Shown one piece after another: positions 5,051 through 56,828 of a stretch of DNA of 64,000 bases. A model generated the notes under the pieces. The model was given only the letters and a program-made list of their open reading frames with translations. It was not told the origin of the DNA and did no database searches. A program made the translations under genes and the position numbers. Position 1 is the first letter of the stretch; each line of letters starts with the position of its first letter. This DNA comes from Alphaproteobacteria bacterium (GTDB lineage Bacteria > Pseudomonadota > Alphaproteobacteria > MPNO01 > UBA830): positions 4,672,001 to 4,736,000 of the forward strand of contig OZ251539.1 in assembly GCA_965243135.1 (NCBI GenBank). The letters run 5' to 3'.

Positions 5051-5090
5051 AGTATGTGATGCATCCATTGAATCAGCAGAGGCGATAACC

Positions 5091-11288: not shown

Positions 11289-11299
11289 TCCGTTCACCG

Positions 11300-11987: not shown

Positions 11988-11991
11988 AGAT

Positions 11992-13094: not shown

Positions 13095-13386
13095 CGGGTC
13101 GTCCGGAAAGGAAGCGTTTCCTGCCGAGCTTCTCCGCAAATTATCTGTGTCGGCCTCAAATCGCGTGTGGTTTCTTCGTGACCGGGCGGGCTGGTTGAGC
13201 GGTATTTCGGCTGAAGCTTGCCGGATGCGGGGCGGAGACGCGGTTGCCGCATTCCGCCGAGATCTGCGGCAAGCTGTTTGCTCCTGCGAAACGCGACTAT
13301 AATGCAGGCGTGCGGAAAGGCGCGGCGGCGGACCTCGCGCCTCGGCATGATCAAGCACTGCTAAGGGTGCCAAACGGGTATCTGAC

Positions 13387-15383: not shown

Positions 15384-15963
15384 TTATCACCATGAGAGGG
15401 ATCAGGGGTACAAGGATTCCTTGATCGAGTTTGGCGTGAAGAATTCCGTATTCGTGGACAGGTCTGTCGATCCTGGCGACATTTCGGAGGAATTGAGCGA
15501 CGAGCGGATCCGTCACATAATCAGAGACAAGTATCTTAGGGATTCCACGGTTACCATTGTGTTGGTTGGAAAAGAGACGAAACACCGGAAACACGTCGAC
15601 TGGGAGATTCACACCAGCATGTACGACGGGACCGCGAGCAGAAGATCGGGAATAGTGGTCATCAACCTGCCGGGAACCTCCGATTACTTTGGCGCTCCTT
15701 ATGGAGAGGCCGAGAAAAAACTCTTGTATCCAGACGTTACGAACTGGATGAGTATAGATTCACGAGCGGAGTACGAACGCAGATATCCCTACATGCCTGA
15801 TCGCATCGTGGACAATCTCGTGAAATCCGACGTAAAAATTTCGGTCGTTCCTTGGGGCAGGCTAAATGCGGAAAGACTCGAATTTCTGATAGAAGCGGCC
15901 TTTAGCAATCGTTTTGAGTGCGGATACGATCTGAGCAGACGAATGAGGCGGGCAAACTCGTAA
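15364..15963 (+). CDS. ThsB-like TIR-domain protein (MTH538/DUF1863 type)
   Basis: HKVFISYHH, DRSV..GDI, IRDKYLRDSTVTIVLVG.ET..RKHVDWEI. Confidence 0.88.
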   Translation: MHKVFISYHHERDQGYKDSLIEFGVKNSVFVDRSVDPGDISEELSDERIRHIIRDKYLRDSTVTIVLVGKETKHRKHVDWEIHTSMYDGTASRRSGIVVINLPGTSDYFGAPYGEAEKKLLYPDVTNWMSIDSRAEYERRYPYMPDRIVDNLVKSDVKISVVPWGRLNAERLEFLIEAAFSNRFECGYDLSRRMRRANS

Positions 15964-36181: not shown

Positions 36182-36768
36182 GACGACCCGGCAATCCTGA
36201 CGTGGCTGACGACGTTCCTCACGTAATCGAGATTTCGGGCGTGATTGGCCACGCGGTCCAGTTCTTCCTGGCTTCGCGAGACCCCGAGCAGATAAACGGT
36301 GCCGCCGACGGTTTCGATGGAGTAGTTGACGGACGCCACCTCGCGATCCAGCAGCAGCTTCGCCTTCAACTGCCCGGAAATCCAGGTGTCGTGCGCGAAG
36401 CCGGCGATGCCGCCGCTCCTGTCGATCCGTATTTCGTTGATGACTTCCTTGACGCCTTTCGCCTCCCAGGCGAGCCTGACCGCTTCGTCGCGCATTTCGG
36501 GGGCGTCGACGACGCCGGTGAGCAGGACGCGGGCTTCGTGTATCTGAAGGCCGATCTTGTGCCACAGCCGTTCGCTCTTCGACAACAAGAGCGCATTGAT
36601 GCGCACCCTGATTTCCGTGTCGCTGATCGCGCCGCCGAGGCCTCGTTCCTCCATCGCGGCGCTTCCGGCCATGGCGCCCGCTCCGACGAAGGCCTGGTCG
36701 CAGCCTTGCAGCGACAGGCAAAGGGAAACGGCCGGAATGGCGAGGAGGGCGGGATATGTCCTTTTCAT
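36178..36768 (-). CDS. BON-domain lipoprotein (DolP/YraP-like)
   Basis: LQGC lipobox; two BON repeats ([16 protein letters not shown]; [13 protein letters not shown]). Confidence 0.9.
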
Positions 36769-36912
36769 GGGAGGCGGCGTTCTGGCGAGGCGAAAAGCGG
36801 ATTCGTTGCGGCGGGTTGTCGGCAGGGGGGATTATGCTTGACGGTTCGGGCGGGCGCAAGAAGATGCCGCGCGCGTCGCGACCAGTCGAGAACACGCTGC
36901 GCGCCCGGCGGT

Positions 36913-37534
36913 TCAGGCAGCCCGGGCCAACCCCTCGAGGCGCGCCAGCCAAGCGCGAAATCGCGGGCATTCCGTCGTCTCCAGACCCGCTTCCCGTGCG
37001 ACCTGCGGGCCGTGCAGGCGTTTTTGGTATCCCGATACTGCTTGTTTGATTCGCTTGCTCGGCGCACCGTTCGGATCGTCGTTGATGTCTTCGGGAGTCG
37101 CGAACTGCCGACGGACTGCCGCAAGAATCTCGACGCTGCGGTCCGCGATGTCCAAGATCGTCCCGAACGCCGCCGTATCGGAAAACAGCAAGCCTTCGAA
37201 CTCGTGTTTCTGAACATAGGGAAACACCCGTCTTCCGTCTGGATTATGCGCGTAGATCTTTTGCTTCAGGCATTCTTCCAGCGTCTCGACCGTCCGATCT
37301 CCCTTGTCGCTAAAGCCGTAGAAGCGGACCAGCGACGTCACGGCGTCGAAAGACCGTTGGAGACGGCGCATCACGAGTCGTTCGATGCTGACATTTCCGC
37401 CGCCGGCCCCGCCGCTCCGGGCGCGGCCGAGCAGGAGTTGGCTCGACCTCGAACGGCCGCGGACGGTCGGCGAGAACGCGCTTGACGAACTCCCCTTCGG
37501 TCTGGCCCTCCACGGATATTGCGAGGCGGATCAC
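36913..37534 (-). pseudogene. DUF4276-family (TOPRIM-like) protein, frameshifted
   Basis: VIRLAISVEGQTEGEFV in one frame; GGNVSIERL, FYGF, PYVQKHEFEGLLFSD, PEDIND..APSKRI and CPRFRAWL in another. Confidence 0.75.
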
Positions 37535-38682
37535 GGACGGCCTCCCAGCAGGTTCTTCTGCCAAAGCTCGCCTGTCGTATACTCCTTCAGCCAATCCCGA
37601 TAATCTTTCTCATCGCATCGGCGAATGGTCGTCCGCCCATCGTCCCGTGGTTCCAGAACGAGGATCTCGTCGAGACCGAACGCATCGACGAGCAGCGGGG
37701 ACTGCGTCGCCACGATGACCTGCCGCCGGTCAGCCAGCGCTTTGATCATGTCGCCGATCAGACTGGCAGCGGCCGGATGCAACCCGAGTTCCGGCTCGTC
37801 CAGCAGCAGCACGTCGGGAAGCATCTCGGACGGGAGGTTCAATAGCGTCACAAGGGCGAAGAAGCGAAGCGAGCCGTCGGACGTCAGATGGGCGCCGATG
37901 GTCTTGTCCATCCCCCGGATCTTCCACCGCAGCATGGCCTTTCCGCTGCTCTTCTCGATCTCGAACCGGTCGAAAACCGGCAGCGCGCGCTGGATATGGC
38001 TGCAAATCGACTTGAACCGCCGCCCGTCCTCGCGCTCCAAGCGGTATAGAATTGCCGCCAAATTTCCACCGTGCGCACGAAGATAGGCATTGTCTTCCGC
38101 GTCGCAATTCTTCTTGAGATTCGAGTCGCGGGAAGTGTCGTGAAACTGGTAAACGGCGCAGCGCCTCAACAAACCAGTGAGCGCATTGGCGACTTTAGCG
38201 CTGCCTCCTGACGGCTCGGCCGATTGCGCGGCTTCGACGATCTTCGCCTCGGAGTGGCCGCTTCCCAGATACTGCCACGATGCCTTCGTTTCCCGCCTGT
38301 CCGAGCAGAATCGAAACGCTTCGTCCGTGAAGATGAACCGATCCGGATGGGCGAAAGAAAGCATGAACATATAATCGTTTCGTCCGCTTTCCGCTCTCAT
38401 GGACAATTCGGCTTCCATCCGCGAGCTGACCTTGCTTCCGCCGAAAAGCTGGTCGTCGGCGCCGCCTTGAAGCTGAACGAACTCGGCCAGCCGGTGGAAG
38501 CCGATCATCCAATTCATCAATTCGAAAAACCGGACGAAGCTGGATTTTCCCGATCCGTTGGCGCCGACCAGAACGGTTGCCATCTGCAGGTTTTTGATTT
38601 CGACATCCGCAAGGGATCGAAAGCCTTTGATGCGGACGGATTCAATTTGATTTGGCACAGGGTTCTCTCGCGCGCCGATCAC
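37531..38682 (-). CDS. ABC-type AAA ATPase (AAA_21 family)
   Basis: GANGSGKS Walker A, SDGSLRF signature, LLLDEPELGLHP, VATQSP, GELWQKNLLGGRP; start may be GTG 38658. Confidence 0.9.
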   Translation of the reverse strand: MIGARENPVPNQIESVRIKGFRSLADVEIKNLQMATVLVGANGSGKSSFVRFFELMNWMIGFHRLAEFVQLQGGADDQLFGGSKVSSRMEAELSMRAESGRNDYMFMLSFAHPDRFIFTDEAFRFCSDRRETKASWQYLGSGHSEAKIVEAAQSAEPSGGSAKVANALTGLLRRCAVYQFHDTSRDSNLKKNCDAEDNAYLRAHGGNLAAILYRLEREDGRRFKSICSHIQRALPVFDRFEIEKSSGKAMLRWKIRGMDKTIGAHLTSDGSLRFFALVTLLNLPSEMLPDVLLLDEPELGLHPAAASLIGDMIKALADRRQVIVATQSPLLVDAFGLDEILVLEPRDDGRTTIRRCDEKDYRDWLKEYTTGELWQKNLLGGRP

Positions 38683-40279: not shown

Positions 40280-40830
40280 CCTTTCTCCTCAGCTACTGCG
40301 TGGGTGCTGGTCAGCGCGGCTCCGGCGGCCGCATCGAGCAGTCTGTCCGCCGCGTCGAACAAATGCATGAGCTCTTCGATTCGCGCAATTATGTCGAGAA
40401 GCTCGCGCTGGAGGTGCCGATCCAGCGTTTCTCCTTTCCGTGCGTCGAGCCAGCGGCGGAGGACGGGGTATCCGCTGACAGCACCCCCCCCCATGTGCGA
40501 TTTGACACTCCAGTGATGCGGAGCGATCGGTCGCCGAGAAGGAAGACTGCACCTTCCTCGAATGCGCGCCGCGGCGGCGGAACGTCAAGTAGCGGACTAG
40601 ATGCACGTCCTTCCAGTCGCGCTTGCCGGAAGCGCTCGTCGGGTTCTGCGTCGAATGCCTGAAGTTTTCGGATGCGGGTGCCTAACGCCGCCGCGTCTTG
40701 GAATGCGTCGGGGTTTGCGGGAAAGGGAACATGCGGAAAGGCATCCTCAAGATCGTGTGCGAAGCGAATTGTGTAGGTTGCCGCAGAAAGCAAGGCGAGA
40801 ATCGCGCCGAATATCTCCTGTGACGCAATT
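40280..40830 (-). pseudogene. Fragment of a type ISP restriction-modification enzyme C-terminal domain
   Basis: QEIFGAILALLSAATYTIRFAHDLEDAFPHVPFP...LGTRIRKL, then ITGVSNRTW / VSGYPVLRRWLDARKG after a frameshift in a G-run near 40490. Confidence 0.65.
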
Positions 40831-44483: not shown

Positions 44484-45085
44484 GGCCGCGGCGGCAGGCA
44501 GGCCGCGACCAGTTTGCGAAACGCGCGCGCGCGGTGGCTCTTCGCGTGTTTCTCGGCGGGATCGATTTCGCCGAACGTCAGCGCGTCGCCGTCGGCGACG
44601 AACATGGGATCGTAGCCGAAGCCGCAGTTGCCGCGCGGCGGCCAGATCAGGGCGCCGGAAACGCAGCCTTCGAACGTCTCGGCGTGTCCGTCCGGCCATG
44701 TCAGAGCCAGGGCGCAGACGAAGCGCGCTCGCCGGTCCGGGGACGTTCCGAGAGCGTCGTTCACGCGGGCCATGGCGGCGGCGAAATCGCGTTCCGGTCC
44801 GGCCCACCGGGCGGATCGGATGCCGGGTTCCCCGCCGAGGGCCGCAACCTCGAGGCCGGAATCGTCGGCCAAGGCCGGAAGCTTCGCGGCGCTGGTTGCC
44901 GCATGGGCTTTCAGAAGCGCATTCGCGACGAAAGTCTCGCCGGTTTCTTCGGGTTCCGGCAGCTGGAGCGCGGTTGCCGAAACCGCCGTCAACGACCAGG
45001 GGGAAAGCAGCGTTCCGATTTCCCGCACCTTGCCGGGGTTGTGGCTGGCGACCGCCAGGCGTTCGTCGGCGAGGCGCCTCGCCAT
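44480..45085 (-). CDS. rdgB: dITP/XTP pyrophosphatase
   Basis: ASHNPGK, ADDSGL, GFGYDP, KSHRARA. Confidence 0.96.
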
Positions 45086-45792
45086 CAGAGGTCGGCGAGA
45101 GCCATGCGCTGGAGCGTGGTCAGTTCGCCAGCCCCTTTCTTGGCGAGCTCCAGGAGCCGGAGGAACGCTTCCTCGCTGAACGGGCTTTTCTCGGCGGTTC
45201 CCTGAATCTCCACCAGATCGCCGTCGCCGGTAAGCACGAAGTTCGCGTCCGCCTGGGCATCCGAGTCCTCTGCGTAGTCGAGATCGAGAACCGCCTCGCC
45301 CTCGAAGATTCCGCAGGAAACGGCGGCGACGGACCCCCGGATCGGATTGATTTCGCGGCGAAGGGTCGCGACGGCGATCTTGAGCGCCACCCAGGCGCCG
45401 GTGATCGCCGCGGTCCGCGTGCCTCCGTCCGCCTGGATCACGTCGCAGTCCAGCCGAATCTGCCGTTCGCCGAGAGCCTTGAGATCCGTAACCGCCCGGA
45501 GAGACCGGCCGATCAGGCGTTGTATTTCCTGCGTCCGGCCCGACTGTCGACCGCGCGCGGCTTCACGGTCGGTGCGCTGGTGAGTGGACCTCGGCAGCAT
45601 GCCGTATTCGGCGGTGATCCATCCGGCGCCGGTGTTGCGAAGAAACGGCGGGACGCGATCCTCGACGGTCGCGTTGCACAGTACTTGGGTATTGCCGAAA
45701 CGCACGTAGCACGATCCTTCGGCGTAGGGCGAAAAGCCGGTCTCGAGCTTGACGCTTCGCATCTGATCGGGCGCGCGGCCGGACGGGCGCAT
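45085..45792 (-). CDS. rph: Ribonuclease PH
   Basis: [39 protein letters not shown]. Confidence 0.98.
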
Positions 45793-45872: not shown

Positions 45873-47781
45873 GAGCCGCGTGCGCTGTTCGTAACGTCTT
45901 GAAATGCAGACAGCTTTCCGGGGTGCGGAATTTTTTCCTCGGGTACGGAAAACTGCGAATTCTCCGCGCCGAGATTTTCGCGGATTCCACCCCACGGCCG
46001 GCCGGACGCCGCCGCCCTGCGGCAAACGGCCGCACCGGGCAAAAAAATCTGGCCAAAGGGGTTCGCCACGGGTAGTGTTGTCAGCATCTCAACCCACAAC
46101 ACTGTGAGGTACCCGTGGCGACAGAACATTCTTTTCCTGGACCGATGTCGACAGGCTGCCCGACCTCCGGCGTCTGGCGCTGGTCCTCGAAGCGCTGCCG
46201 GACGGGCCGCTGCTGGCGCGGCTCAAGGAGCAGCGCGGGCGCGGGCGCGACGACTATCCGGTTCGCGTGGCGCGCGACGGTCGCGGGCATCGTGCTTCAG
46301 CACGAGTCCATCGAGTCGCTGATTCGAGAACTCAACCGCAACCCGGCGCTTCTGACGCTGTGCGGCTTCAACCCGCTCGACTACCAGGGCAAGCCGAAGG
46401 TCAAGGCCGACGACGACGGCAAGCCGCGGACGACGTCTCCGAAACCTCGCAGCGCGGTTCCCGGGAGCCACAACTTCTCCCGGTTCCTGAGCGCCCTCAT
46501 CAAGCTTGAGAGCAAGGATCCCTGGGTCGGCGGCATGGTCCAAGAGTTGCGGGAGCAGCTGACGGCGGAGTTGCCGGACTTCGGCGAGCACCTCGGCTAC
46601 GACGGCAAGGCAGTGGACAGCCACTCGACGGGGCAGGTCAGCCGCAAGACCGGCAAGACTTCCGACCCGGACGCCAACTGGGGGAAGCACGAGACCGTCG
46701 GCATAGACGGGAGGACCGGCAACCTCTGGACGAAGGTGAAGTCGTGGTTCGGGTTCGGGCTGCACGCCGACACCAAGTACGAGATCCCGGTGGCTTTCAG
46801 CGTTACCCAGGCATCGAGGGCCGAGACCAGGGAACTGGACGCGATGTTGGACAGGCTGTTCGGGGAAACGCCGCTGCTGGCCGGGCGCTGCAAGGACTTC
46901 AGCGCGGACCGGGGGCTCGACAGCGGACCGCTCAAGGCGAAGCTGTGGGACGAGTTCGGCCCCGTTGACGCGCCTGTTGTGGCGGGAAGAGAAGAAAGAC
47001 CCCGACTACGACCCCGACAAGCCCCCGTCCGCTCTTCGACGACAACATCTACCATACCGAGAGGGGCGAGGTGCTGTGCAAATGTCCCGAAACCAACGTC
47101 CAGCGGCACATGGCGTTCCAGGGCTTCGAGGCCAACCGCGGGGCGTGCGGCACCCTCAAGTACCGTTGCCCGGCGGCGGCCTTCGGCTTCGAATGTGCAG
47201 GTCGCAAGGAATGCCACCGGGCCGCCGAGTGCCAGGCCGGCGAGTACGGTCGCATCGTCCGCGTCGACCTGGAGAAGCATGACAGGCGGATGTTCACGCC
47301 GGTCCCCTGGGGCAGCCCCTCCTGGAAGCGCGGACCGCCGCTCCGCCATGGAGCGAATCTACAGCCGGGTCGACAATGCTTACCGCATGGAGAAGCACTA
47401 TGTCCGCGGCCTGCGGCAAATGCGCCTGCGGCTCGGCCTCGTGACAGTGGTCATGATGGCGACAGCGCTCGGGCACCTGCGGGCGGAACGCCAGGAGCGC
47501 ATGCGGTCGCTGGTCGCTCCGGTCGGGCTGCGCGACACGGGATGACCGCCGCGGTCGTCTGACCGCCCCCCCGGCCCCGCAACTGACCGCCTGCGTTCAG
47601 GCCACGGCCCGGCTCGCCCCGGGTTTGCGGCGCGGCGGCGCGGCAACCTGGTATTCGCTTTTTGTTCTGGAGTCTGAGCGTCCGCGAGGCCCTTGCGGGC
47701 CGCCGGCGGGCGGGCGGAGCGGCTCGCGGGGCGTCGGCCGGGCGGCGGACCGACAAAAAAATGGCACAGCGCAAGCGGCTC
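45873..47781 (+). mobile_element. Insertion sequence (1909 bp) with 16-bp TIRs and 5-bp target duplication
   Basis: Left end GAGCCGCGTGCGCTGT (45873-45888); the right end (47766-47781) reverse-complements to GAGCCGCTTGCGCTGT (15/16 match); GTTTC flanks both sides (45868-45872, 47782-47786). Confidence 0.9.
46115..47545 (+). pseudogene. DDE transposase (IS1182/IS5-like), multiply frameshifted
   Basis: RGRDDYPVR, GYDGKAVDS, DPDANWG, WFGF, SADRGLDS, LKYRCPA and RSAMERIYSR are spread over three frames. Confidence 0.85.
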
Positions 47782-47978
47782 GTTTCCAGGTTCCCGATAT
47801 CGCGAGTGCATGCTATCTTTATGGATGAAAACAGGAAGAATTACTATGAAATACTTTGAAACAGAAAGATTTATTTGAGAATCATCGTAAAATCGAAAAT
47901 AAATCGTCCGTGGAACCTTGATTTGGTTTGTGCTAACGTAAACGATAGAATTGCTGTCACGGATGCGGAGAAGGCGAT

Positions 47979-49187
47979 ATGGATGCCGCATATCCGGCGA
48001 CCGTCAACGACGCCCAGTGCGTCCATTCTCGCCGGCATGCTTCAACGGTGGTCGACACGGTGCTGCTCAAGGTTGCGAGCCGGTGCAATCTCGATTGCAG
48101 TTATTGCTACGTCTATCGCATGGGCGACGACGCTTGGCGCAGCCAGCCCAAACGCATGTCGGAGGCCGTTCAACATGCGGCCGTTCGACAGCTGGCGAGT
48201 TTGTATTCCCGACAGCAACATCCGCTCAGCGTTGTGCTGCATGGCGGCGAGCCGCTGCTCATTGGAGCAAGTCGTCTTCGGGACCTTTGCGGGCAACTCC
48301 GCTCCGCCCTTCCCGCTCCGTGCGGAATTCATGTCCAAACGAATGGAATTCTTCTTGCGGACGACGTGATCGATATCTTCGTTGAATACGGCGTCGGAGT
48401 ATCGATCAGCATCGACGGCCCATCGGAGGTCCACGACCGATTTCGCCTTGATCACCAAGGAGGCGGATCACATGAACGCGTCCGGCGCGGAATTTCCCGG
48501 CTGACTGCGCGAACGGACGCGCGTCCCTTGTTTGCCGGAGTTCTGGCGGTGATCGACCCCGCGAGCTGTCCCGACTCCGTTTATCGCTCGCTCAAGGCGA
48601 CTGGCGCTCCGAGCATCGATTTTCTGGTTCGCGACGGAAATCATGCGTGCCTGCCGCCCGGGAAGGAACGCGTCGATTCGACGGAGTTCGGGCGCTGGAT
48701 GGCCAGCCTGCTCGATATCTACCTGAGCGATCCAAACCCGCCGCGAGTACGCATCCTTGACGATATGCTTCGCCTGATTCTCGGAGGAAAGTCGCAGAAG
48801 GAGGGCGTAGGCGTTGCCGATTACGGCATTCTCGTGATCGATACCGACGGCCGGATCAACAAGAACGATACGTTAAAAGCGGCCGGCAGAGCCGCCGACC
48901 GTTTTGAACGGGAGCCATGGTCGATACTGTCCGACAGTCTGCTCGACATCGTTCGCCATCCGGTCTATGCAGACTACTATCGCCAGCAGCGGCCGATGGC
49001 CCCTGCCTGTCTCGCGTGTCCCGAACTCGGCGTTTGCGGCGGCGGAATGGTCGCGCATCGATGGAGCGGGGAGCGGGGCTTCGACAACCCGACGGTGTTC
49101 TGCGCCGATCAATTGCTGCTGATCGGGCGCATGCGGGAGCGGGTCGCGCAATTTCTGGGCCCGTTCAAGCGGCGGGAAGCCGCATGA
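47979..49187 (+). CDS. Cyclophane-forming radical SAM/SPASM peptide maturase (YhhB-like)
   Basis: LKVASRCNLDCSYCYVY, HGGEPLL, QTNG, SIDGP; C-terminal CLACPELGVCGGG...NPTVFC. Confidence 0.88.
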   Translation: MDAAYPATVNDAQCVHSRRHASTVVDTVLLKVASRCNLDCSYCYVYRMGDDAWRSQPKRMSEAVQHAAVRQLASLYSRQQHPLSVVLHGGEPLLIGASRLRDLCGQLRSALPAPCGIHVQTNGILLADDVIDIFVEYGVGVSISIDGPSEVHDRFRLDHQGGGSHERVRRGISRLTARTDARPLFAGVLAVIDPASCPDSVYRSLKATGAPSIDFLVRDGNHACLPPGKERVDSTEFGRWMASLLDIYLSDPNPPRVRILDDMLRLILGGKSQKEGVGVADYGILVIDTDGRINKNDTLKAAGRAADRFEREPWSILSDSLLDIVRHPVYADYYRQQRPMAPACLACPELGVCGGGMVAHRWSGERGFDNPTVFCADQLLLIGRMRERVAQFLGPFKRREAA

Positions 49188-49207
49188 ACAACGAAAAGGA
49201 GCATCCA

Positions 49208-49366
49208 ATGGCTGACAAGCGCGAGGAGGTTCGACCGGATCTGGACATCGAACCAACGAGCATCGACAGCGCCGCTTTGGCTCGACTTGTCGAGGAGGTG
49301 CGGAACAAGGGCGAAACCGTCTCGTCGGTCGCCTATAACCGCACGTACCATCGTCATAACAGGTGA
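49208..49366 (+). CDS. RiPP precursor peptide (YhhA-like triceptide precursor)
   Basis: AAGGAG RBS before ATG 49208 (alternative ATG 49184 overlaps the rSAM stop); leader IDSAALARLVEEVR; core YNRTYHRHNR at the C-terminus. Confidence 0.85.
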   Translation: MADKREEVRPDLDIEPTSIDSAALARLVEEVRNKGETVSSVAYNRTYHRHNR

Positions 49367-49968
49367 CTTGCGCGCTCTTGCGCGAAGACGCGGAAGTGGA
49401 GTTCCACGCCACTCCTTTCCGCTACTTCCTCGCGCGGCATTGCTTCTCGCCGGACCTTGAACCGACGCTTCTCGAATGGTTCGAATCCAGTGCGCCGTGG
49501 CGACTGGTGGAAACCGATTTCTACGAGCAGTACGAGTTCAGCATGTTCGACGCCGCTCTTCCGGAGAACGTTTCCCGGTTGACGGCACCGGAAGGTCTTG
49601 CGGCGTTTCGCTCCGCAATGGGCGCGCTTTTCGACGTCGAATTGGATGATCGGGTCGATCTGGTGGCGCACAGGCTGATGCCCGGACAGCGAATCGCGCT
49701 CCATAACGATTATCTGACCGGACAGGAAACGCATCGTCTCACCGTTCAGCTGAACCGGGGCCTGCGCGACGAGGACGGCGGTTTTTTCATGTTGTTCAAC
49801 AGCGCGGATCCTAACGACGTTGATCGGATCGTCCGTCCGGTCAGCGGAAGCGCGATCGGTTTCGAGATCGGCGAGAATTCCAACCATGCCGTTTCCCTCC
49901 TGCACGGCGGAGAACGCTATACGTTGGTCTACTCGTTCCGTTCCAGGCCCGTTGGTAAGCGAACCTAG
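49363..49968 (+). CDS. 2OG-Fe(II) oxygenase (YhhC-like)
   Basis: LHND (HxD), GGFFMLF, SNHAVS, ERYTLVY; GTGA overlap with the precursor gene. Confidence 0.85.
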   Translation: MTCALLREDAEVEFHATPFRYFLARHCFSPDLEPTLLEWFESSAPWRLVETDFYEQYEFSMFDAALPENVSRLTAPEGLAAFRSAMGALFDVELDDRVDLVAHRLMPGQRIALHNDYLTGQETHRLTVQLNRGLRDEDGGFFMLFNSADPNDVDRIVRPVSGSAIGFEIGENSNHAVSLLHGGERYTLVYSFRSRPVGKRT

Positions 49969-49978
49969 GCAAGCGCTT

Positions 49979-50815
49979 ATGGAGGCGCTGGCTCGTCCGA
50001 CCGAGCCGTGGTTCCCGGGGTTGGCTCGTCCGCTAACCGAAGCTGCTTGGCGAGAATGCAAGCATCGCGGCTTCGATTCCGCAAACTACGGAACGCATCG
50101 CTGGCTGTGCAACGATCCAAAAGCCATGCGCATGGAGGCAGCTGCGCTCAATATTGCTTTCGAGTGCAGGATCGAAAAATTGCCCGCGTCGACCCGCGCT
50201 AGGTACGAAGACTGCGGCTTGACCTTCTCGGAATCTACGTCGGCGGCCGATGTCGCTGCCGTTCGATCTGCGTTGTCTTTCATCGCTCTGCTTCCGAGCT
50301 TGCGGGAGACGATCTCGGCGTATTTGCGGGCTCTGCATATTCTCAAAGCGCCCGGTTCGGATTTCGACGTCAGTCACAGCGATCCGGAGGCGCCATTTTC
50401 GGTTTTCGTGTCGATTCCCCCTTCGTGTCCTGAGGCAGAACTGCGCCTTGCCGAATCCATAGTTCATGAATGTATGCATCTCCAGCTGACGATGATCGAA
50501 GCCGTCACACCGCTTGTTCGAGACTGCTATATCCAAGCTTATTCTCCATGGACCCAAACGACACGGCCACTTGGCGGGATATTGCACGGACTGTATGTGG
50601 TATCCGTGATATACTTCTGGTTCCTGTCCGGTCATGAAAATATAACATCGACTAAGAAAAAATTTGTTCATCAGCGCATGCGCACCATAGAGCGAGAAAT
50701 GAGAGAAACTTCATGGCTCGCCATATCGGAAGGATTAACCGACGCTGGGAAAGCCTTGGTTAGACAGGTTTTGCAACATCAAAAATATTTCATTAACTTT
50801 ATAGATAGTCAATAG
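49979..50815 (+). CDS. HExxH-motif protein (aKG-HExxH type peptide-modifying enzyme)
   Basis: SHSDPEAPFSVFVS, LAESIVHECMHLQL, YSPW...RPLGGILHGLYV; start at ATG 49979 or TTG 49952. Confidence 0.82.
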   Translation: MEALARPTEPWFPGLARPLTEAAWRECKHRGFDSANYGTHRWLCNDPKAMRMEAAALNIAFECRIEKLPASTRARYEDCGLTFSESTSAADVAAVRSALSFIALLPSLRETISAYLRALHILKAPGSDFDVSHSDPEAPFSVFVSIPPSCPEAELRLAESIVHECMHLQLTMIEAVTPLVRDCYIQAYSPWTQTTRPLGGILHGLYVVSVIYFWFLSGHENITSTKKKFVHQRMRTIEREMRETSWLAISEGLTDAGKALVRQVLQHQKYFINFIDSQ

Positions 50816-51554
50816 TCATAGCACTAAATTCCGCTGTTTGTTCTCTGTATGAAACTAGTTTGTTAACAGCTTTCTCTCGATCTTCTATGTCGTTTGGATC
50901 CGTGCTTCCGTCGAGCGCAAGAGCAATTATCTGTAACGTTTCCAAGATATCCAAATGCTTCAAACGTTGGTCTTTCAGAGCGGGCCGATTAAGATCTACA
51001 ACATCGATTGTCTTTCTTCCAATTTCCGTAACTCCAACAGCGACATTTTCAAAATATACGATGTGATTTCGTGGATCCTCAATACCACCAGGGTCGAGAA
51101 GCAATGGTTGTTCAATATCCACAGGGTCAATGTGTGAACAGGCCCTTTGAGCGTGATTTTTCAACGGAAATAGCTCTCTTTTTGAACTTCTGTTGCAATG
51201 TTCGCAAGAATAATATAAATTTTTCCAGCAGTATGCTAGCCAGTAATATCCCGGGTAGATTCGTGATCCCGTCTCGCTTTGTTTTACCGCCCCTTTGGGC
51301 CGATAATGCTCAATGTCGCCAGACGAAAAAGCTTCAAACTTTCCCTCACAATAGCAACATTTTCCGTGTTGATCTTTTCGTAGGGTTCGTTTTACAGTAT
51401 TATGAGAATATATTCCTCTATCGAAGTCAAAGGTTTTTTCACCAGTTAAATAGATCTCTCGATTTTCCTCAAATAGTCGGCAAAGTTCCATACGGCGTTC
51501 CATTCCGGACGTCGTGAGAATTATAGGAGAAGGCGATTTATTGACCCGGATCAT
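50799..51554 (-). CDS. HNH endonuclease (Septu PtuB-like)
   Basis: KCCYCE, DIEHYRPKG, YYWLAY.W.NL..SCEHCN, PLLLDP. Confidence 0.88.
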   Translation of the reverse strand: MIRVNKSPSPIILTTSGMERRMELCRLFEENREIYLTGEKTFDFDRGIYSHNTVKRTLRKDQHGKCCYCEGKFEAFSSGDIEHYRPKGAVKQSETGSRIYPGYYWLAYCWKNLYYSCEHCNRSSKRELFPLKNHAQRACSHIDPVDIEQPLLLDPGGIEDPRNHIVYFENVAVGVTEIGRKTIDVVDLNRPALKDQRLKHLDILETLQIIALALDGSTDPNDIEDREKAVNKLVSYREQTAEFSAMTIDYL

Positions 51555-52911
51555 CGGAGGCGTCTTTCAACCCAAGGCGTTTGGCTACGCTACGGATGAT
51601 CTCCATCGCGCTTTCATCTTCTTGAGAATCGGCAGTCGGTAATTTTCGTTCGCGCTGCCGTAATTCGTTAAGTTCTTTTTTTTCTTTCTCCGACAAATCA
51701 GATCTCTGAATAAGACTATTATATCTTTCCCTCCACTTTTCCACTTCATGTGAACGTGATGAAGGCAAATCAAACAGTTCACTAGTGATAAGTTGATCCA
51801 GTCTCCAGCCTTGAACAATAGCGGGGTCATTGACGATTTCCGTGTGGTCTTCTGATCGGCGAAGAACGGCCACGTTGGCATCCAAAGAGTTCAGAGCCAT
51901 CAGCGGACTATGCGCAGTTGCGATAAACTGAATATTGGGAAAGTATTCTGTCAGACGGTCGCGGATTTTCCGCTGCCAGCTCGGATGTAGATGCAGGTCG
52001 ATTTCATCGACTATCACGATGGCTGGTTCGCGAAGAGGATCAGAGCTGTTTTCGTAGTGGCCGAGCAGTCTCGAAGCGATATCGGTGATCCACGCAAACA
52101 TAGTCTGATAGCCGAGGCTTAGTTGATGAAATGACACGTTTCCGTAAGGAGTATCTACGCGAATTCCTGACTTTTCAGGAGAAATTCCAGGGCCTGGGGG
52201 CGCGAAGATCTCGATTGAATCAGGGTTGGAAATATCTTCAATAATCTTGGACAGTATCATTCTGATACCATCCAATTTTTTTTGCGCCATGAGATCTCCT
52301 TTCATGGACGCATGGTCGAGGCGATAGAGAAAATCTTCTGCGTCGCAAAGCGAAGATTCTACCTTGAACAACGATACGGTCGGATCAGTTTCAGGTGTGA
52401 TATCTACATTCGCCACCCTAGGATGTCGTCCGGCACCATAAGCCAAAACAAGAGGTTCTTCCGCATTGACTTCTTCGGGTTCTCCACTAGAGCTGACGTC
52501 CGCAATTTGTCCATCCTTCCGTTTTATTTCATGGAGCGTTGAAATGGATTTTGAACCTACTTGATGTTTGTCGGATAATTTGCACAAGGAAAGGTGGGTT
52601 TCCAACCTTGCGGGGGAGTCGGTGCCATGACGAGCCAATCTCTTAAGAACTTCGTTCTCGGGTTCTCGCGCCAACTCAGGTTCTACAGGATTGGGCAATG
52701 TGCCTTTATTGTCGTCGGGAGGACGATTGAACATAGGGCGCATTCGCACGAGACACTGGAGCAATGTGGTTTTTCCAACTCCGTTGTCGCCGACAATAAG
52801 AGTCCACGGGGCAGGGCACCCCGCGTCGTTGGTAAGGTCCAACTCTTGGCGATCAGCGAATGATCGGATATTCTCTATATTCAACTTCGTAAAGTAAATA
52901 GCATTCGACAT
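51538..52911 (-). CDS. ABC-type ATPase (Septu PtuA-like)
   Basis: GDNGVGKTT, YGAGR, QLSLGY, VIVDEIDLHLHPSWQ, FPNIQFIATAHSP; overlaps the HNH start. Confidence 0.9.
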   Translation of the reverse strand: MSNAIYFTKLNIENIRSFADRQELDLTNDAGCPAPWTLIVGDNGVGKTTLLQCLVRMRPMFNRPPDDNKGTLPNPVEPELAREPENEVLKRLARHGTDSPARLETHLSLCKLSDKHQVGSKSISTLHEIKRKDGQIADVSSSGEPEEVNAEEPLVLAYGAGRHPRVANVDITPETDPTVSLFKVESSLCDAEDFLYRLDHASMKGDLMAQKKLDGIRMILSKIIEDISNPDSIEIFAPPGPGISPEKSGIRVDTPYGNVSFHQLSLGYQTMFAWITDIASRLLGHYENSSDPLREPAIVIVDEIDLHLHPSWQRKIRDRLTEYFPNIQFIATAHSPLMALNSLDANVAVLRRSEDHTEIVNDPAIVQGWRLDQLITSELFDLPSSRSHEVEKWRERYNSLIQRSDLSEKEKKELNELRQRERKLPTADSQEDESAMEIIRSVAKRLGLKDASDDPGQ

Positions 52912-53410
52912 TAGTGGCTCCGATCACGAGCGCTGAAGTCGGCAGGCTACTATAGCAAGGCAAACTCTTGACCTCGGACAAATAGTCAGACGGTCAAGCG
53001 ATGTCAAGCTGCACCTCATACGGAGCTGACAGCGCGTTTGGATGTGGAAAGGGTGCCGATGCCAGCGGGTCGTGAAACCTGTCGCAGGCAGTGGCAATGG
53101 ATACCGGGAGCGAGCCGAGGCCCGCTTGCCCCGCGCCGCTTGGCGGTGCGGGGGCGGCTGGCGCAAGGAAGGCGGTTCCTTGCCGCGAGCGCGGAGAAGA
53201 ACGGGAACCCCGAATCCGTCCGCGCTGCGCGAAGATCGTGCGACCGGGAGGCGCTGCGGAAGAGCGCTCTCGAGACGGCCTGCGGCGGCACCGTGGCGTC
53301 AAATCAGGAACGGGCGTACCAGACGGAAGGAACGGAAGAAATTTGCCGCCTCTTCCCCGGCGGGCCTCGGAGGATTGCGCCGAGACTTGAAAGCCCCGCG
53401 GGAAGAATTT

Positions 53411-55653
53411 CAGACCTCCTGACATGGTATGCGGAACTTGAAGATTTTGCTTGACTTTTCTCCAGGGCGTCGTAAATTAGAATGTACCACTTTCTGGAGA
53501 ATACCATGTTCCAGTCCCGCCTCGCCGTCCTGCCCGAAAATGCGACCGTGATCAGCGACAGACTGGCCTGTGTCCGCGACGATGGACATCTTGAGTTTTT
53601 CAATCCGGGCGGCCCGATTTATCGCTGCGCGGAAGACGACAAGGCGGGCCTGCGTCTGGCGCAGGGTTTGCTCGGCGACCTCGGGCTGGCGACGGTGGCG
53701 GCGCTGTCGCGCGTCTTCGGCGTTTCCCGCCTCACCATCCGTCGCAACCGGGACGCCTACCGGTCCCGCAACGTGGCGGCCTTCGCCAAAGAGCGCGGAC
53801 CGCGCGGAGGGTACAAGCTGACGGAGCTGGCACTGCAACGGGCACAGGAGGCACTCGACGAAGGGCGGTCGCAAGTTGCGGCGGCGAAGGCCGCGGGCGT
53901 GACCGAGGGGACGATCCGCCATGCCCTGCGGCAGGGGACCCTGCGCGCGGACCGGCGGCAGGGTCCGGGAACGCAGCCATCGGTGCGGTCCGCGACGGAC
54001 GGGCGCTGCGAAGGCGGCGTCGCGGTCAAGCGGGTCGAGGAACGGGTGCTTGCGAGCGTGGGAGAACTCGCCGAGGCCTCGACGCGTTTCGAGGCGGCGG
54101 AATCGGTGCCCGGCGCGGGTGTCTTGCTGGCGTTGCCGGCGCTGCTGCACGAGGGGCTGGTCGAGGTTACGGAGGAGGTTTACGGACAGCTTGAGAAGGG
54201 GTTCTTCGGCTTGCGCAGCATATTGTTGACGCTGGCCTTCATGGCCTTGCTGCGCATCAGGAACGCGGAACAACTGAAGGGCCATGCCCCGGGAGAGCTG
54301 GGCCTGCTGCTCGGTCTCGACCGGGCTCCGGAGATGAAGACGCTGCGCCGCAAGCTGAAGGAGGTCGGTCGGCGCGGTCTGGCGCGGCGACTGGCCGAAG
54401 CGTTTACCCGACGGTGGGCGGAGGCCGAGCCGGAAGCACTCGGCTTCCTGTACGTCGACGGACATGTGCGACCCTACCACGGACGCAAGCACCGCCTTCC
54501 CGAAACGTTCGTGCCGCGTCGGCGCCTGTGCATGCCGGCGACGACCGACACCTGGGTCAACGACGCTCGGGCGCAGCCGTGGTTCTTCGTTTCCATGGAG
54601 GCCAATGACGGCCTGCTGCAGGCGCTGGACAGGGATGTCCTGCCGCGGATACGAAAGGAGGGGCGCGTGACCGTCGTTTTCGATCGCGAGGGCTGGAGCC
54701 CGGAAACGTTCCGGCGCTGGGCGGCGGAAGGCGTCGATGTCATGACCTACCGGAAGGGCCATTATTCCCCTTGGCCGGAGGAAGGCTTCACGACGGTGGA
54801 GGACCCCGCGTCCGGCGTCCGTTACCGGCTGGCCGAACGGGAGACGGGTCTCGGCGAGAAAAGGTTCAAGATGCGCGAGGTGCGGCGGCTGTGCGACAAC
54901 GGCCATCAGACCGTGACGACCCGCCGGGACCTGCCGACCGTCGAGGTCGCCTCGCGAATGTTCGCCCGCTGGAACCAGGAGAATTACTTTCGCTACATGC
55001 GGCACGAGTTCGCGCTCGACCATCTTTGCACCTACGAGACCGAGCCGGCCGACCCCGAACGGATAATCCCCAACCCGCCGTACAAGGAATGCAAGGCGCG
55101 GATCGAAAGCCTCGAAGCGAAGATCGGGCGCATCCGGAAACAGCAGTGGAAGGACGAAAAGAAAGGCAGAACCGCGAGGAGCGGCAAGGCATCCCCGGAA
55201 GAACGCATCAAGGAACTCGAAGTCCTGATCGAGGAATGCGAGGCGCGCCTGGAAACCCTGCCGGAAAGAGTGCCTGTCAAGGAAACCATGGACGAGGAGG
55301 AGATCGTCAGACTCGAACCCGAGCGGAAGATCTTCACCGACCTCGTCAGGATGGCGGCTTACCGGGCGGAAAGCGCGATGCTCGCTCCCCTCGGTCCGCT
55401 GCTGAACCGGAGCGAGGACGAAGGCCGCGCCTTTCTCCAAACCCTGTTTCGAACCCCGGCCGACCTCGTCCCGGGTGACGGATGCCTCACCGTGCGCTTC
55501 CATTCCATGTCGCAGCCCCGCTTCAACAAGGCGCTTCGGGAACTCTGTGCCATGACCACTCGCGAAGGCCATGCCTACCCCGGCACCGGGCTGAAACTGG
55601 CGTTCGAGGGACCCCTGCTGGAAAATTGAATTTACGCGATGTCAGGAGGTCTG
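53411..55653 (+). mobile_element. Intact insertion sequence (2243 bp) with perfect 15-bp TIRs and 5-bp target duplication
   Basis: CAGACCTCCTGACAT (53411-53425) and ATGTCAGGAGGTCTG (55639-55653); AATTT on both flanks (53406-53410, 55654-55658). Confidence 0.93.
53482..55629 (+). CDS. Large DDE transposase with N-terminal HTH regions
   Basis: YVDGHVRPY, VVFDREG and RWNQENYFR give a D-D-E triad; fills the TIR-bounded element; start may be ATG 53506. Confidence 0.88.
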   Translation: MYHFLENTMFQSRLAVLPENATVISDRLACVRDDGHLEFFNPGGPIYRCAEDDKAGLRLAQGLLGDLGLATVAALSRVFGVSRLTIRRNRDAYRSRNVAAFAKERGPRGGYKLTELALQRAQEALDEGRSQVAAAKAAGVTEGTIRHALRQGTLRADRRQGPGTQPSVRSATDGRCEGGVAVKRVEERVLASVGELAEASTRFEAAESVPGAGVLLALPALLHEGLVEVTEEVYGQLEKGFFGLRSILLTLAFMALLRIRNAEQLKGHAPGELGLLLGLDRAPEMKTLRRKLKEVGRRGLARRLAEAFTRRWAEAEPEALGFLYVDGHVRPYHGRKHRLPETFVPRRRLCMPATTDTWVNDARAQPWFFVSMEANDGLLQALDRDVLPRIRKEGRVTVVFDREGWSPETFRRWAAEGVDVMTYRKGHYSPWPEEGFTTVEDPASGVRYRLAERETGLGEKRFKMREVRRLCDNGHQTVTTRRDLPTVEVASRMFARWNQENYFRYMRHEFALDHLCTYETEPADPERIIPNPPYKECKARIESLEAKIGRIRKQQWKDEKKGRTARSGKASPEERIKELEVLIEECEARLETLPERVPVKETMDEEEIVRLEPERKIFTDLVRMAAYRAESAMLAPLGPLLNRSEDEGRAFLQTLFRTPADLVPGDGCLTVRFHSMSQPRFNKALRELCAMTTREGHAYPGTGLKLAFEGPLLEN

Positions 55654-55730: not shown

Positions 55731-55745
55731 CCCCAGCCGGTGGAC

Positions 55746-56828
55746 ATGATGAGCAAGTCGCCTCCCGGCCTTATCGGCGAACTGAACGAGCGCTCCCGCG
55801 AGATATTCCGCGAGATCGTCGAAAGCTACTTCGCGGACGGCGAGCCCGTCGGGTCGCGAACCCTGTCGCGGCGGCTCGATACGCCGTTGTCGCCGGCCAC
55901 CATCCGCAACGTCATGGCCGATCTCGAGGACATAGGCCTGCTCTACGCGCCGCACACGTCGGCCGGCCGACTTCCGACCGACAAGGGGCTGCGCCTGTTC
56001 ATCGACGGCCTGCTGGAAATCGGCGATCTCAGCGCCGAAGATCGCCGGAGCATCGAGGTCCAATGCAACAACCACGGAACCAGCCTCGCCGAGGCGCTCG
56101 GCGAGGCGACTTCCGTGCTTTCGGGACTGGCCGGGTGCGCCGGGCTGGTCGCGGTTCCCAAAACCGCGCGGCCGCTCAAGCATATGGAGTTCGTGAACCT
56201 GGGAGACGGGCGGGCCCTCGCGGTGTTGGTCACGGACGACGGCTTCGTCGAGAACCGGCTGATCGACTTGCCGCCGGGCACGCCCCTGTCGACGCTGGTC
56301 CGGGCCGGCAACTTCCTGAACGCGCGTTTCGCGGGATCGACCATCGACGAAGCCCACCGCGCGGTGAATGACGCGATCAAGCAGCGCCGCGCCGAAATCG
56401 ACGAGATCACGGCGCGACTCGTGGAGGCCGGCCTGGCGGCATGGGCGGGAGGCGAGCGGCATGCCAGCGCCCTGATCGTCAAAGGGCAGGCGCGCCTGCT
56501 CGACGAGATTTCGGCCATGCAGGACCTCGAGCGCGTGCGCGGCCTGTTCGACGTTCTGGAAACGGAAGAATTGCTTGTCAGGCTTCTCGAAATGACCGAC
56601 AAAGCGGATGGCGTGCAGATCTTCATCGGAGCCGAGAACGTCCTGTTCGACCAGGCTGGCTGCGCCATGGTGGTCGCGCCCTTCAAGGGAGAGCAGCAGA
56701 CCATCGTCGGAGCCATCGGCGTTATCGGTCCGATGCGTCTGAATTACGCCCGGATCATCCCTATGGTCGACTATACGGCCAAGGTCATCGACCGCCTGAT
56801 CGGTCGGCAAACGGAAAGAGAGACGTGA
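55746..56828 (+). CDS. hrcA: Heat-inducible transcription repressor HrcA
   Basis: EPVGSRTL, SPATIRNVMADLE, PHTSAGRLPT, GVIGPMRLNY. Confidence 0.97.
   Translation: MMSKSPPGLIGELNERSREIFREIVESYFADGEPVGSRTLSRRLDTPLSPATIRNVMADLEDIGLLYAPHTSAGRLPTDKGLRLFIDGLLEIGDLSAEDRRSIEVQCNNHGTSLAEALGEATSVLSGLAGCAGLVAVPKTARPLKHMEFVNLGDGRALAVLVTDDGFVENRLIDLPPGTPLSTLVRAGNFLNARFAGSTIDEAHRAVNDAIKQRRAEIDEITARLVEAGLAAWAGGERHASALIVKGQARLLDEISAMQDLERVRGLFDVLETEELLVRLLEMTDKADGVQIFIGAENVLFDQAGCAMVVAPFKGEQQTIVGAIGVIGPMRLNYARIIPMVDYTAKVIDRLIGRQTERET

Follow-up and report, generated by a model that had tools for sequence, protein, structure and literature searches.

The four forward-strand genes at positions 47979–50815 of the window (the whole 64,000-nucleotide stretch of DNA that was analysed) belong to the Yhh family of triceptide clusters, and across the best 80 of the 294 YhhB loci found such genes show a conserved linkage to PtuAB, the ATPase and nuclease pair of Septu; the linked PtuA proteins form a lineage of their own, and conserved export or peptidase genes are lacking. 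The best explanation of the locus is a single, horizontally mobile unit of six genes (47979–52911), in which the yhh genes are joined by convergent ptuA and ptuB genes. Our tentative reading, to which we give slightly less than an even chance, is that this unit is an intracellular module in which the nuclease pair and a hydroxylated peptide with three rings act together, with phage defence as the probable function. Triceptides are a large class of RiPPs. Septu, a common means of defence, has to our knowledge been co-opted solely by a retron. If Yhh and PtuAB form a conserved, co-diverging union, this would be a second takeover of PtuAB by a ligand-making module, chemically unrelated to the first, and would provide the Yhh family with a role open to testing.

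Gene content and layout of the locus

All four yhh-operon genes lie on the + strand and score above NCBIfam curated cut-offs. The first, yhhB (47979–49187), encodes a 402-residue radical SAM/SPASM maturase of the cyclophane-forming type (NF041707, 482.8 bits against a cut-off of 445) with the cluster motif CNLDCSYC, and the YhhB alignment (A1) shows no variation at the CxxxCxxC and SPASM cysteines. It is followed by yhhA (49208–49366), which encodes a precursor of 52 residues (NF041705, 51.1 bits against 36), and by yhhC (49363–49968), which encodes a 201-residue 2OG-Fe(II) oxygenase of the Asp/Asn beta-hydroxylase family (NF041706, 244.5 bits against 150, with a match to PF13640); its putative function as an Asp/Asn beta-hydroxylase is assigned from the available part of the literature on its relatives (PMC12186529). 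The fourth gene (49979–50815) encodes a 278-residue aKG-HExxH-type peptide hydroxylase (TIGR04267, IPR026337, 85.1 bits against 40) in which the HExxH motif is intact (HECMH, residues 163–167). The nearest solved structures for the YhhB and HExxH proteins are both those of ChlBH: the YhhB family profile matches the radical SAM domain of ChlB (9gm3, E 5e-80), and the HExxH protein matches ChlH (8s5f, E 1.4e-10) with HECMH aligned to HEHRH. ChlBH follows the same logic, a cyclophane and then beta-hydroxylation, in the available portion of its description (PMC12636437), but it is a fused radical SAM and aKG-HExxH triceptide maturase, whereas in the window the two are separate genes that accompany another precursor family. 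Classification thus bears out both the Yhh-type cluster and the two oxygenase-type tailoring enzymes proposed in the preliminary description.

The spacing of the genes is tight. They had been described as translationally coupled, which holds strictly for yhhA and yhhC, where the GTG start of yhhC overlaps the yhhA stop by 4 nt, but not for the others, because yhhB and yhhA are 20 nt apart (with AGGAG in the gap) and yhhC is 10 nt from the aKG-HExxH gene. The AT-rich intergenic stretch 5′ of yhhB (47800–47978, + strand) contains one sigma-70-like match, at 47856–47885, which by consensus only is a candidate yhhB promoter. Between rph (45085–45792) and hrcA (55740–56828) the window has no transporter or peptidase, in keeping with the earlier statement that the cluster has neither protease nor exporter.

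The convergent neighbours are real Septu homologues, as had been suspected, each with a full-length PADLOC match. The ptuB-like gene (50799–51554, − strand) encodes a 251-residue HNH nuclease (PDLC00339, 282.6 bits, E 9e-85), and the ptuA-like gene (51538–52911, − strand) a 457-residue ABC/SMC-type ATPase (PDLC00304, 451.8 bits, E 8e-136; PF13304, PF13175). The Walker A and B residues of PtuA (G41, N43, G44, G46, K47 and D302, E303, D305) are invariant in alignment A2, as are the zinc-finger cysteines and HNH residues of PtuB (C66, C69, H83, N112, N121) in alignment A4. The PtuA profile matches the solved PtuA chains 8ee4, 9kjx and 9e8z (E 1e-33 to 1e-39), and full-length PADLOC matches, overlapping genes and the match to 8ee4 are all features shared with Septu. 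The NCBIfam cut-offs for retron PtuA and PtuB are missed (146.5 bits against 500, and 47.1 against 150), and there is no RVT domain, and so no sign of a reverse transcriptase, among the ORFs scanned at 33.5–63.2 kb of the window. The ptuA-like gene overlaps the start of ptuB by 17 nt, and the ptuB-like and HExxH genes overlap by 17 nt at their 3′ ends; terminator-like sites show no excess over the shuffled expectation, and none lies between the convergent genes. The preliminary coordinates thus stand for the yhh genes, but not as the end of the unit, which extends to 52911 and includes the Septu pair. The ptuB-like and ptuA-like genes have GC contents of 0.41 and 0.48, against 0.53–0.61 in the yhh half, and the unit has a repeat element and an IS at its flanks. 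A candidate interpretation of the Septu pair as a chance island neighbour, suggested by its low GC, was dropped once the YhhB loci showed PtuAB to be recurrent.

The precursor peptide and its predicted modification

YhhA has a leader with the helix motif SAALARLVEEVRN, a C-terminal end of ...VAYNRTYHRHNR, and a core, YNRTYHRHNR, that contains three aromatic-X-Arg motifs. A homologous precursor is present in all 80 YhhB loci (the best of 294, by ORF and motif search), and Y43, R45, R49, H50, N51 and R52 are invariant among 46 sequences. The core is near-invariant across phyla, which would be expected if the peptide is a ligand of one constant partner, and not if it were an antibiotic caught up in an arms race. 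It does not co-vary with the type of partner gene, a point that counts against our preferred reading.

Co-expression has shown, in the available parts of the reports, that YhhB joins Tyr-C3 and His-C2 to Arg C-beta and that YhhC beta-hydroxylates Asp/Asn (PMC11002830, PMC11499958, PMC12186529). For the YhhA of the window the cross-links and beta-hydroxylation are predicted from this family chemistry (PMC11002830, PMC12186529, as far as these sources are available): YhhB would join Tyr-C3 or His-C2 to C-beta of the Arg located two positions further along, so that YNRTYHRHNR would acquire three rings (−6 Da), YhhC would beta-hydroxylate Asn/Asp, and the aKG-HExxH enzyme may add extra hydroxyls or cut the backbone. 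Oxidative backbone cutting by aKG-HExxH and other aKG enzymes is possible according to the accessible portions of two reports (PMC12636437; PMC12912966); because such enzymes can cut backbones, the missing protease is no proof that the leader is retained.

The window cluster has the same precursor, radical SAM/SPASM maturase and 2OG oxygenase as the Yhh triceptide cluster YhhA/YhhB/YhhC reportedly described by Sugiyama et al. (JACS 2022), with a core carrying the Tyr/His-X-Arg motifs on which YhhB acts; it differs in the extra aKG-HExxH gene and the conserved nuclease pair. The original description is available through citing papers, in which enzyme chemistry in E. coli is given and no natural product, role or PtuAB link is mentioned, and we found no published report of a Yhh–PtuAB link. 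The preliminary statement that no product or role is established therefore stands, within the available literature on the family, for the natural product and the biological role, but not for the YhhB and YhhC modifications.

Linkage of Yhh and PtuAB genes across genomes

PtuA-like and PtuB-like genes both lie within 1.8 kb in 53 of the 80 YhhB loci (the best of 294, from one-genome-per-species contigs), and these span seven phyla and four gene arrangements: downstream and convergent (41), upstream on the same strand (7), upstream and divergent (3) and downstream on the same strand (2). In 38 of the 41 convergent loci the genes are within 250 bp of each other or overlap. The YhhB–PtuA adjacency expected by chance is about 0.02 of the 80, given 85 matches to PDLC00304-like genes in 401 genomes, and the adjacency is not due to chance. 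De-replication at 90% YhhB identity leaves 60 clusters, 42 of them with PtuAB only and one mixed, and at 70% identity the link is present in 16 of 25 clusters. It persists at divergence down to 48% identity in YhhB and 33% in PtuA, and the pairwise distances of the two proteins are correlated (Mantel r 0.75, a value reached in none of 2000 permutations), although correlated trees are also expected when adjacent genes move together. The association is consequently stronger than the abutment of a Septu-like pair noted at the outset. YhhB relatives were also sought in viral contigs, where none of 55 pattern matches was confirmed.

The linked PtuAs are phylogenetically distinct. In a tree of 75 rows built by a quick method, one branch (SH-aLRT 100) separates 63 Yhh-linked PtuAs and a single loner (L086) from 11 others, for which no yhh gene is present in the DNA available around each; L082, labelled 'alone' in the tree, is a 2.8-kb contig and too short to judge. 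The PtuA of the window falls inside the Yhh-linked clade, whose members adjoin yhh genes in 63 of the 64 rows, and this fully supported branch divides it from the stand-alone PtuAs of Septu, which form the sister clade. A metagenome sample collected from PtuA (the best 80 of 545) gave 47 loci with both PtuA and PtuB, 13 of them with yhh genes, nine stand-alone (with 2 kb or more of flanking DNA on each side) and 25 too short to tell. The nearest relatives of the Yhh-linked PtuAs evidently work without any peptide. Comparison with the stand-alone PtuAs revealed no large Yhh-specific insert, the differences being confined to blocks of 3–5 residues and five diagnostic positions, and this too weighs against our preferred reading.

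No conserved exporter or peptidase family was found around the 80 YhhB loci (the best of 294), and no family outside the module occurs in more than six of the 80. The 53 loci with PtuAB have 97 flanking genes, which include only four transporter-domain and two S9-peptidase genes, none conserved, and nine integrases, relaxases and transposases. The conserved transporter or leader peptidase of an exported antibiotic is therefore seen neither in the window nor in the 80 loci, and homologous clusters do not routinely carry exporters, a pattern that would have spoken against the preliminary suggestion of an intracellular peptide. Defence genes, including CBASS, a type ISP enzyme, BrxD, TIR and PLD, lie near many YhhB loci.

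These data bear on the alternative that the halves of the unit are unrelated, the peptide being a conventional natural product that serves as antibiotic, signal or metal binder and relies on a remote transporter and protease, and Septu a co-cargo of mobile islands. In exported antibiotics the core usually varies and a gene for immunity or export is present; here we observe neither, nor does hitch-hiking predict retention through four gene orders and seven phyla and down to 48% YhhB and 33% PtuA identity, a separate Yhh-linked PtuA clade, or the replacement of PtuAB in its slot by other large genes that resemble effectors (see below). We regard this alternative as improbable, even though co-transfer by itself yields correlated trees, the two halves differ in GC, mobility genes are frequent among the flanking genes, a repeat element and an IS border the unit in the window, and RiPPs with remote proteases and transporters are known from the available part of one report (PMC12636437).

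Other neighbours and the possible role of the Yhh peptide

PtuAB is absent from 27 of the 80 YhhB loci (the best of 294), a departure that also counts against our preferred reading. In 13 of these 27 a large neighbour takes its place, either a SIR2+TPR, DUF4062+TPR, Sel1+DUF2971 or HEAT-repeat protein, and occupies the same slots at 0–600 bp from the operon; these calls depend on crude ORF calling. At least eight loci with full flanks have no recurring partner (five from Streptomyces, L048, and the degraded L002 and L077), so the Yhh genes are able to persist alone, a further difficulty for a dedicated pairing with PtuAB. On the YhhB tree the partner types are intermingled, with 11 changes between PtuAB and other states, at least eight of them forced by starred branches, and sister loci differ, e.g. 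DUF4062 in L038 and SIR2 in L040, or PtuAB in L049 and Sel1 in L081. The alternative partners share no receptor domain and have no detectable sequence similarity to each other, which makes one common peptide receptor less likely and is again unfavourable to our preferred reading.

The exchange of neighbours leads to a broader proposal, which we consider possible but doubtful, of a modular immune system built around the conserved Yhh genes. Their ribosomal peptide, cyclised by the radical SAM enzyme, would behave like a small-molecule ligand and hold or trigger interchangeable effectors (PtuAB, a SIR2 NADase, DUF4062 and others). The other Yhh loci would then combine the same peptide module with the SIR2+TPR, DUF4062+TPR, Sel1+DUF2971 or HEAT-repeat proteins, much as retrons have varied effector types, and the Yhh peptide would take the role of msDNA in retrons or of cyclic nucleotides in CBASS. 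If true, this would be the first RiPP to act as an internal immune regulator, and would provide a role for Yhh triceptides.

It is also conceivable, though unlikely, that the Yhh peptide is itself antiviral and that PtuAB and the other neighbours are separate, synergistic defence systems. The core is identical whatever the neighbour, some loci have no recurring partner, the partners have no shared domain, and many loci sit amid other defence genes, all of which this would accommodate. There is a possible precedent in the lanthivirins, class I lanthipeptides that, in the available part of their description, are an anti-phage RiPP family with no cluster protease and a product that is hard to detect; they differ in RiPP class and chemistry, and no nuclease or NADase partner is described there (10.64898/2026.08.26.747419). 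Synergy poorly explains, however, a PtuA lineage that is almost confined to yhh loci (63 of 64 rows), or why 38 of the 41 convergent loci have retained gene ends that lie close together and often overlap.

Returning to our preferred reading of a six-gene module, the linkage to PtuAB and the lack of a conserved exporter suggest, from gene neighbourhoods, that the peptide acts intracellularly in phage defence. The rigid and strongly basic peptide would stay unexported in the cytoplasm and join PtuA and PtuB as a third component of a specialised form of Septu, where it would most likely gate the ATPase-nuclease. It may restrain PtuAB until infection disturbs peptide supply or binding, or it may turn PtuAB on; either way, activated PtuAB would cut nucleic acid and abort the infection. 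Septu is reported, in the accessible part of one study, to cut the variable loop of tRNA-Tyr (PMC13096335), and in the Htk triceptide cluster a non-modifying protein was pulled down with the precursor (PMC11499958, likewise in part).

Such control of PtuAB may be analogous to that in retron Ec78/Eco7 (type I-A), which, in the available portion of its description, co-opted PtuAB and likewise places a Septu pair under the control of a third-party module whose product is a small, non-protein-like ligand, with an adapted PtuA lineage, its PtuA having gained elements of its own (PMC12819146). The ligand differs, being msDNA rather than a modified peptide. The same source notes that retron-sequestered PtuAB restricts the host once displaced, and this together with the position of the unit on mobile DNA is compatible with an addiction module resembling a toxin-antitoxin system, in which PtuAB or another partner is the toxin, the short-lived peptide is the antidote, and the island is stabilised with no dedicated anti-phage role; PIN, TacA and MqsA toxin-antitoxin genes near several YhhB loci are in line with this. 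Four biosynthetic genes make an expensive antidote, and we consider such a role very unlikely; being compatible with abortive infection, it is a sub-case of our preferred reading rather than a true rival. RiPP clusters that lack exporters and proteases are worth searching for intracellular immune functions, and we note that tools for finding defence systems that label such loci as plain 'Septu' would miss four of the six genes.

The six-gene unit and its predicted product

In the window, two housekeeping genes, rph (45085–45792, minus strand) and hrcA (55740–56828, plus strand), bound about 10 kb of inserted DNA, within which lies a unit of six genes. Four of these form the Yhh cluster and are transcribed on the plus strand: yhhB (47979–49187; NF041707, 482.8 bits against a cut-off of 445), encoding the rSAM/SPASM maturase; yhhA (49208–49366; NF041705, 51.1 bits against 36), encoding the 52-residue precursor; yhhC (49363–49968; NF041706, 244.5 bits against 150), encoding a 2OG-Fe(II) oxygenase; and a gene for an aKG-HExxH hydroxylase (49979–50815; TIGR04267, 85.1 bits against 40). 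Converging on them with a 17-nt overlap is a pair of Septu-type genes, ptuB-like (50799–51554) and ptuA-like (51538–52911), which give full-length matches to the PADLOC profiles PDLC00339 (E = 9e-85) and PDLC00304 (E = 8e-136), respectively. Among solved structures, the window's YhhB comes closest to the ChlB rSAM domain (9gm3, E = 5e-80) and its aKG-HExxH protein to ChlH (8s5f, E = 1.4e-10, with the HExxH motif aligned).

The chemistry of these families is described in the literature. YhhB links Tyr-C3 to Arg-Cβ and His-C2 to Arg-Cβ, for example in an HNR ring (PMC11002830, PMC11499958), and YhhC is described as an Fe/2OG Asp/Asn hydroxylase that yields L-erythro-β-hydroxy-Asp on YhhB/C-modified YhhA (PMC12186529). 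For aKG-HExxH enzymes, hydroxylation of cyclophane peptides is reported, with oxidative backbone cleavage also possible (PMC12636437). The literature on these families indicates that the Yhh peptide would become tricyclic and hydroxylated.

Linkage of the yhh and ptuAB genes

PtuAB is not a chance neighbour of the yhh genes. From a YhhB scan with one genome per species, the best 80 of 294 YhhB-encoding stretches were kept, and PtuA and PtuB neighbours were sought by tblastn with the window's proteins. Both a PtuA-like and a PtuB-like gene lie no more than 1.8 kb from the operon in 53 of these 80 loci, 41 being convergent downstream (counting L062 and L069, both with overlapping gene ends); in the rest the pair shares the operon's strand, upstream in 7 and downstream in 2, or is upstream and divergent, in 3. 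Because there are 85 PDLC00304-like matches (in 51 genomes) among a 401-genome sample of the phylum, adjacency by chance is expected in about 0.02 loci in 80; YhhB is above its cut-off in two genomes of that sample, G000 and G383, the latter unpublished but carrying the same locus as the public L041, and no conclusion depends on it. After de-replication at 90% YhhB identity, 42 of 60 clusters are Ptu-only and one is mixed, and at 70% the link is present in 16 of 25 clusters. It is found in Pseudomonadota, Acidobacteriota, Bacteroidota, Nitrospirota, Binatota, Thermodesulfobacteriota and Actinomycetota.

Among the 27 loci without PtuAB, five have a flank shorter than 1 kb on one side (L043, L061, L071, L074 and L079) and two are degraded. 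L077 adjoins an IS605-type TnpB gene, and L002 (Binatia, 11145–15589) is cut by a Mu-like prophage, such that a partial yhhC is the last gene of the Yhh cluster and the HExxH and PtuAB genes give way to prophage genes (portal, Mu F).

The Yhh-linked PtuA proteins form a lineage distinct from the stand-alone ones. Stand-alone pairs of the same PADLOC family do occur: G066 and G074 of the 401-genome sample score above 470 bits with no yhh gene seen nearby, as does G090, although its contig of only 2.8 kb is too short to call. PtuA and PtuB are both present at 47 of the loci from a PtuA-first metagenome scan (best 80 of 545): 13 have yhh genes, 9 are stand-alone with 2 kb or more of sequence to either side, and the other 25 are too short to classify. 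Three of the 13 nearly duplicate genome loci (L095 equals L065, and L094 and L089 resemble L018 and L044). In a PtuA tree of 75 rows, built by a quick method and leaving out the Yhh-linked fragments L097, L100, L106 and L130 and five distant second copies, 63 Yhh-linked rows and a single loner, L086, are set apart by a branch with SH-aLRT 100 from the 11 rows that lack yhh. YhhB and PtuA distances are correlated (Mantel r 0.75, with none of 2000 permutations as high), which fits joint inheritance, although any two co-travelling genes would give the same result. We read the yhh genes and ptuAB as one mobile unit. It is improbable that the two halves are unrelated and merely carried together on mobile islands, and very improbable that the whole is a pure addiction module.

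Partners, precursors and the role of the peptide

When all called neighbours in the 80 loci were clustered, no family beyond YhhB, YhhC, HExxH, PtuA, PtuB and the precursor occurred in more than six loci. Neighbours that recur in the loci lacking PtuAB are a SIR2 protein of about 680 residues (L039, L040, L051, L056, L060; the L075 member has TPR repeats), DUF4062+TPR proteins (L038, L041, L063), Sel1+DUF2971 proteins (L070, L078, L081), and HEAT-repeat proteins (L064, L072); DUF4365 (L071) and AAA_13/SMC (L046) are single cases. These alternative partners show no sequence similarity when compared with one another. All but one lie within 0–600 bp of the operon, upstream of it and divergent or downstream and convergent, the exception being L051, where another gene separates the SIR2 gene from the operon. 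The five Streptomyces loci lack any recurring partner, as does L048. Partner types intermingle on the YhhB tree, sister loci included (77 rows, not counting L032, L043, L046 and L078), and the presence or absence of PtuAB requires 11 changes, of which starred branches force no fewer than 8.

A precursor is present in all 80 loci. The YhhA leader helix is conserved (S-x-A-L-x-R-L-I-E-E-V-R-N), the core is nearly invariant (Y-[N/D]-R-x-[Y/H/F]-[N/H]-R-H-N-R), and the precursors have no double-glycine site. No transporter or peptidase is conserved around the 53 PtuAB loci, where four of the 97 flanking genes have transporter domains (TctA twice, MFS and a TonB receptor) and two encode S9 peptidases. 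The other 27 loci have 130 flanking genes, and the transport-type ones are only an MFS protein, a solute-binding protein, an import-type ABC ATPase and a TctC, together with one C39-like GNAT protein at a distance of 3.4 kb.

Taking retron Ec78 as the analogue, we tentatively suggest, at somewhat less than an even chance, that the peptide is retained inside the cell and acts together with PtuAB, probably gating an abortive-infection nuclease. That retron is reported to have co-opted PtuAB, with an adapted PtuA (PMC12819146), and tRNA-Tyr is a reported cleavage target of Septu (PMC13096335). The window's PtuA- and PtuB-like proteins score under the NCBIfam retron-Ec78 cut-offs. Several observations count against a peptide acting with PtuAB: the YhhA core does not track partner type, partnerless Yhh loci exist, and PtuA has no large lineage-specific insert. 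The peptide might instead be antiviral in its own right, PtuAB being a neighbour that acts in synergy with it, although we consider this rather unlikely; the lanthivirins are the one RiPP precedent for defence that we came across (10.64898/2026.08.26.747419). Our literature search found no paper tying Yhh or any triceptide to Septu or phage defence, and while the parts are known already, the union of Yhh with PtuAB appears to be new.

Loci of the sphingomonad-type clade (L010–L021 and L033) have two YhhA precursors (e.g. L010 3700–3873 and 5029–5202). The one upstream of yhhB has the core YNRT[Y/H]NRHNR (YDRTYNRHNR in L021), and the one between yhhB and yhhC has YNRTYHRHNR, from which L012 and L019 each depart by single changes. 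Only this second precursor is retained in the window's clade.

Base composition and neighbouring elements

The window's yhh genes have GC contents of 0.61, 0.59 and 0.53, with 0.41 for ptuB, 0.48 for ptuA and 0.63 for the window overall. The ptuAB half is the AT-richer in 46 of the 53 loci, with a difference above 0.05 in 10 of them, and the gap is widest in Hymenobacter (L057–L059, 0.13–0.17) and the window (about 0.13), a hint that units may have exchanged their nuclease halves.

Other defence-like genes occur in the window. Two plus-strand genes (2698–4185 and 4962–6668) match PDC-M61A (E = 2e-24) and PDC-M61B (E = 5e-81) of a PADLOC candidate system; the pair is low in GC (GC3 0.33–0.35 in a 63% GC window), has no Pfam match, and by its profile matches is a second defence-like islet. 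An AAA_21/AAA_15 ATPase gene (37531–38679, minus strand) matches PADLOC HEC-01A at full length (380 bits, E = 3e-114), and its 427-residue neighbour (36202–37482, plus strand) has no Pfam or PADLOC match. A 133-residue ORF (40389–40790, minus strand) matches only part of the C-terminal specificity domain of type ISP restriction enzymes (profile positions 202–257 of 342) and is probably a gene fragment.

In the Hymenobacter-type loci L055, L057, L058, L059 and L076, a second, very distant PtuA/PtuB pair (PtuA-tree branch length 2.8) lies upstream of yhhA, followed by a Tle1-like phospholipase gene (PF09994), an arrangement that looks like a three-gene Septu variant beside the Yhh unit; L047 has the lipase gene only. 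A CBASS cyclase and SAVED-HNH effector are near the unit in L053 and L057–L059. Directly after ptuA in the related loci L003, L004, L024 and L031 is a type IA topoisomerase-like gene of 930–1000 codons (Toprim, Topoisom_bac and C-terminal repeats; PADLOC DpdF-like match, E = 1e-113), with a homologue near the unit in L065.

Two further segments flank the unit. The segment at 46013–47583 (about 1.57 kb) is bypassed by contigs of three of four runs compared with the window (X4, X6 and X7, with joints from 46013 to 47582/47583), its summed depth is far above that of its surroundings, and it behaves as a repeat or mobile element present in several copies; its 476-residue ORF (46115–47545, GC3 0.81) has no Pfam or PADLOC match. 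To the right of ptuA, the Transposase_29 gene (53482–55629) is part of a recent IS (53405–55652) that is absent from contigs of runs X4 and X5, which fuse 53404 to 55653 with 6 letters shared, so that in these relatives hrcA directly adjoins ptuA.
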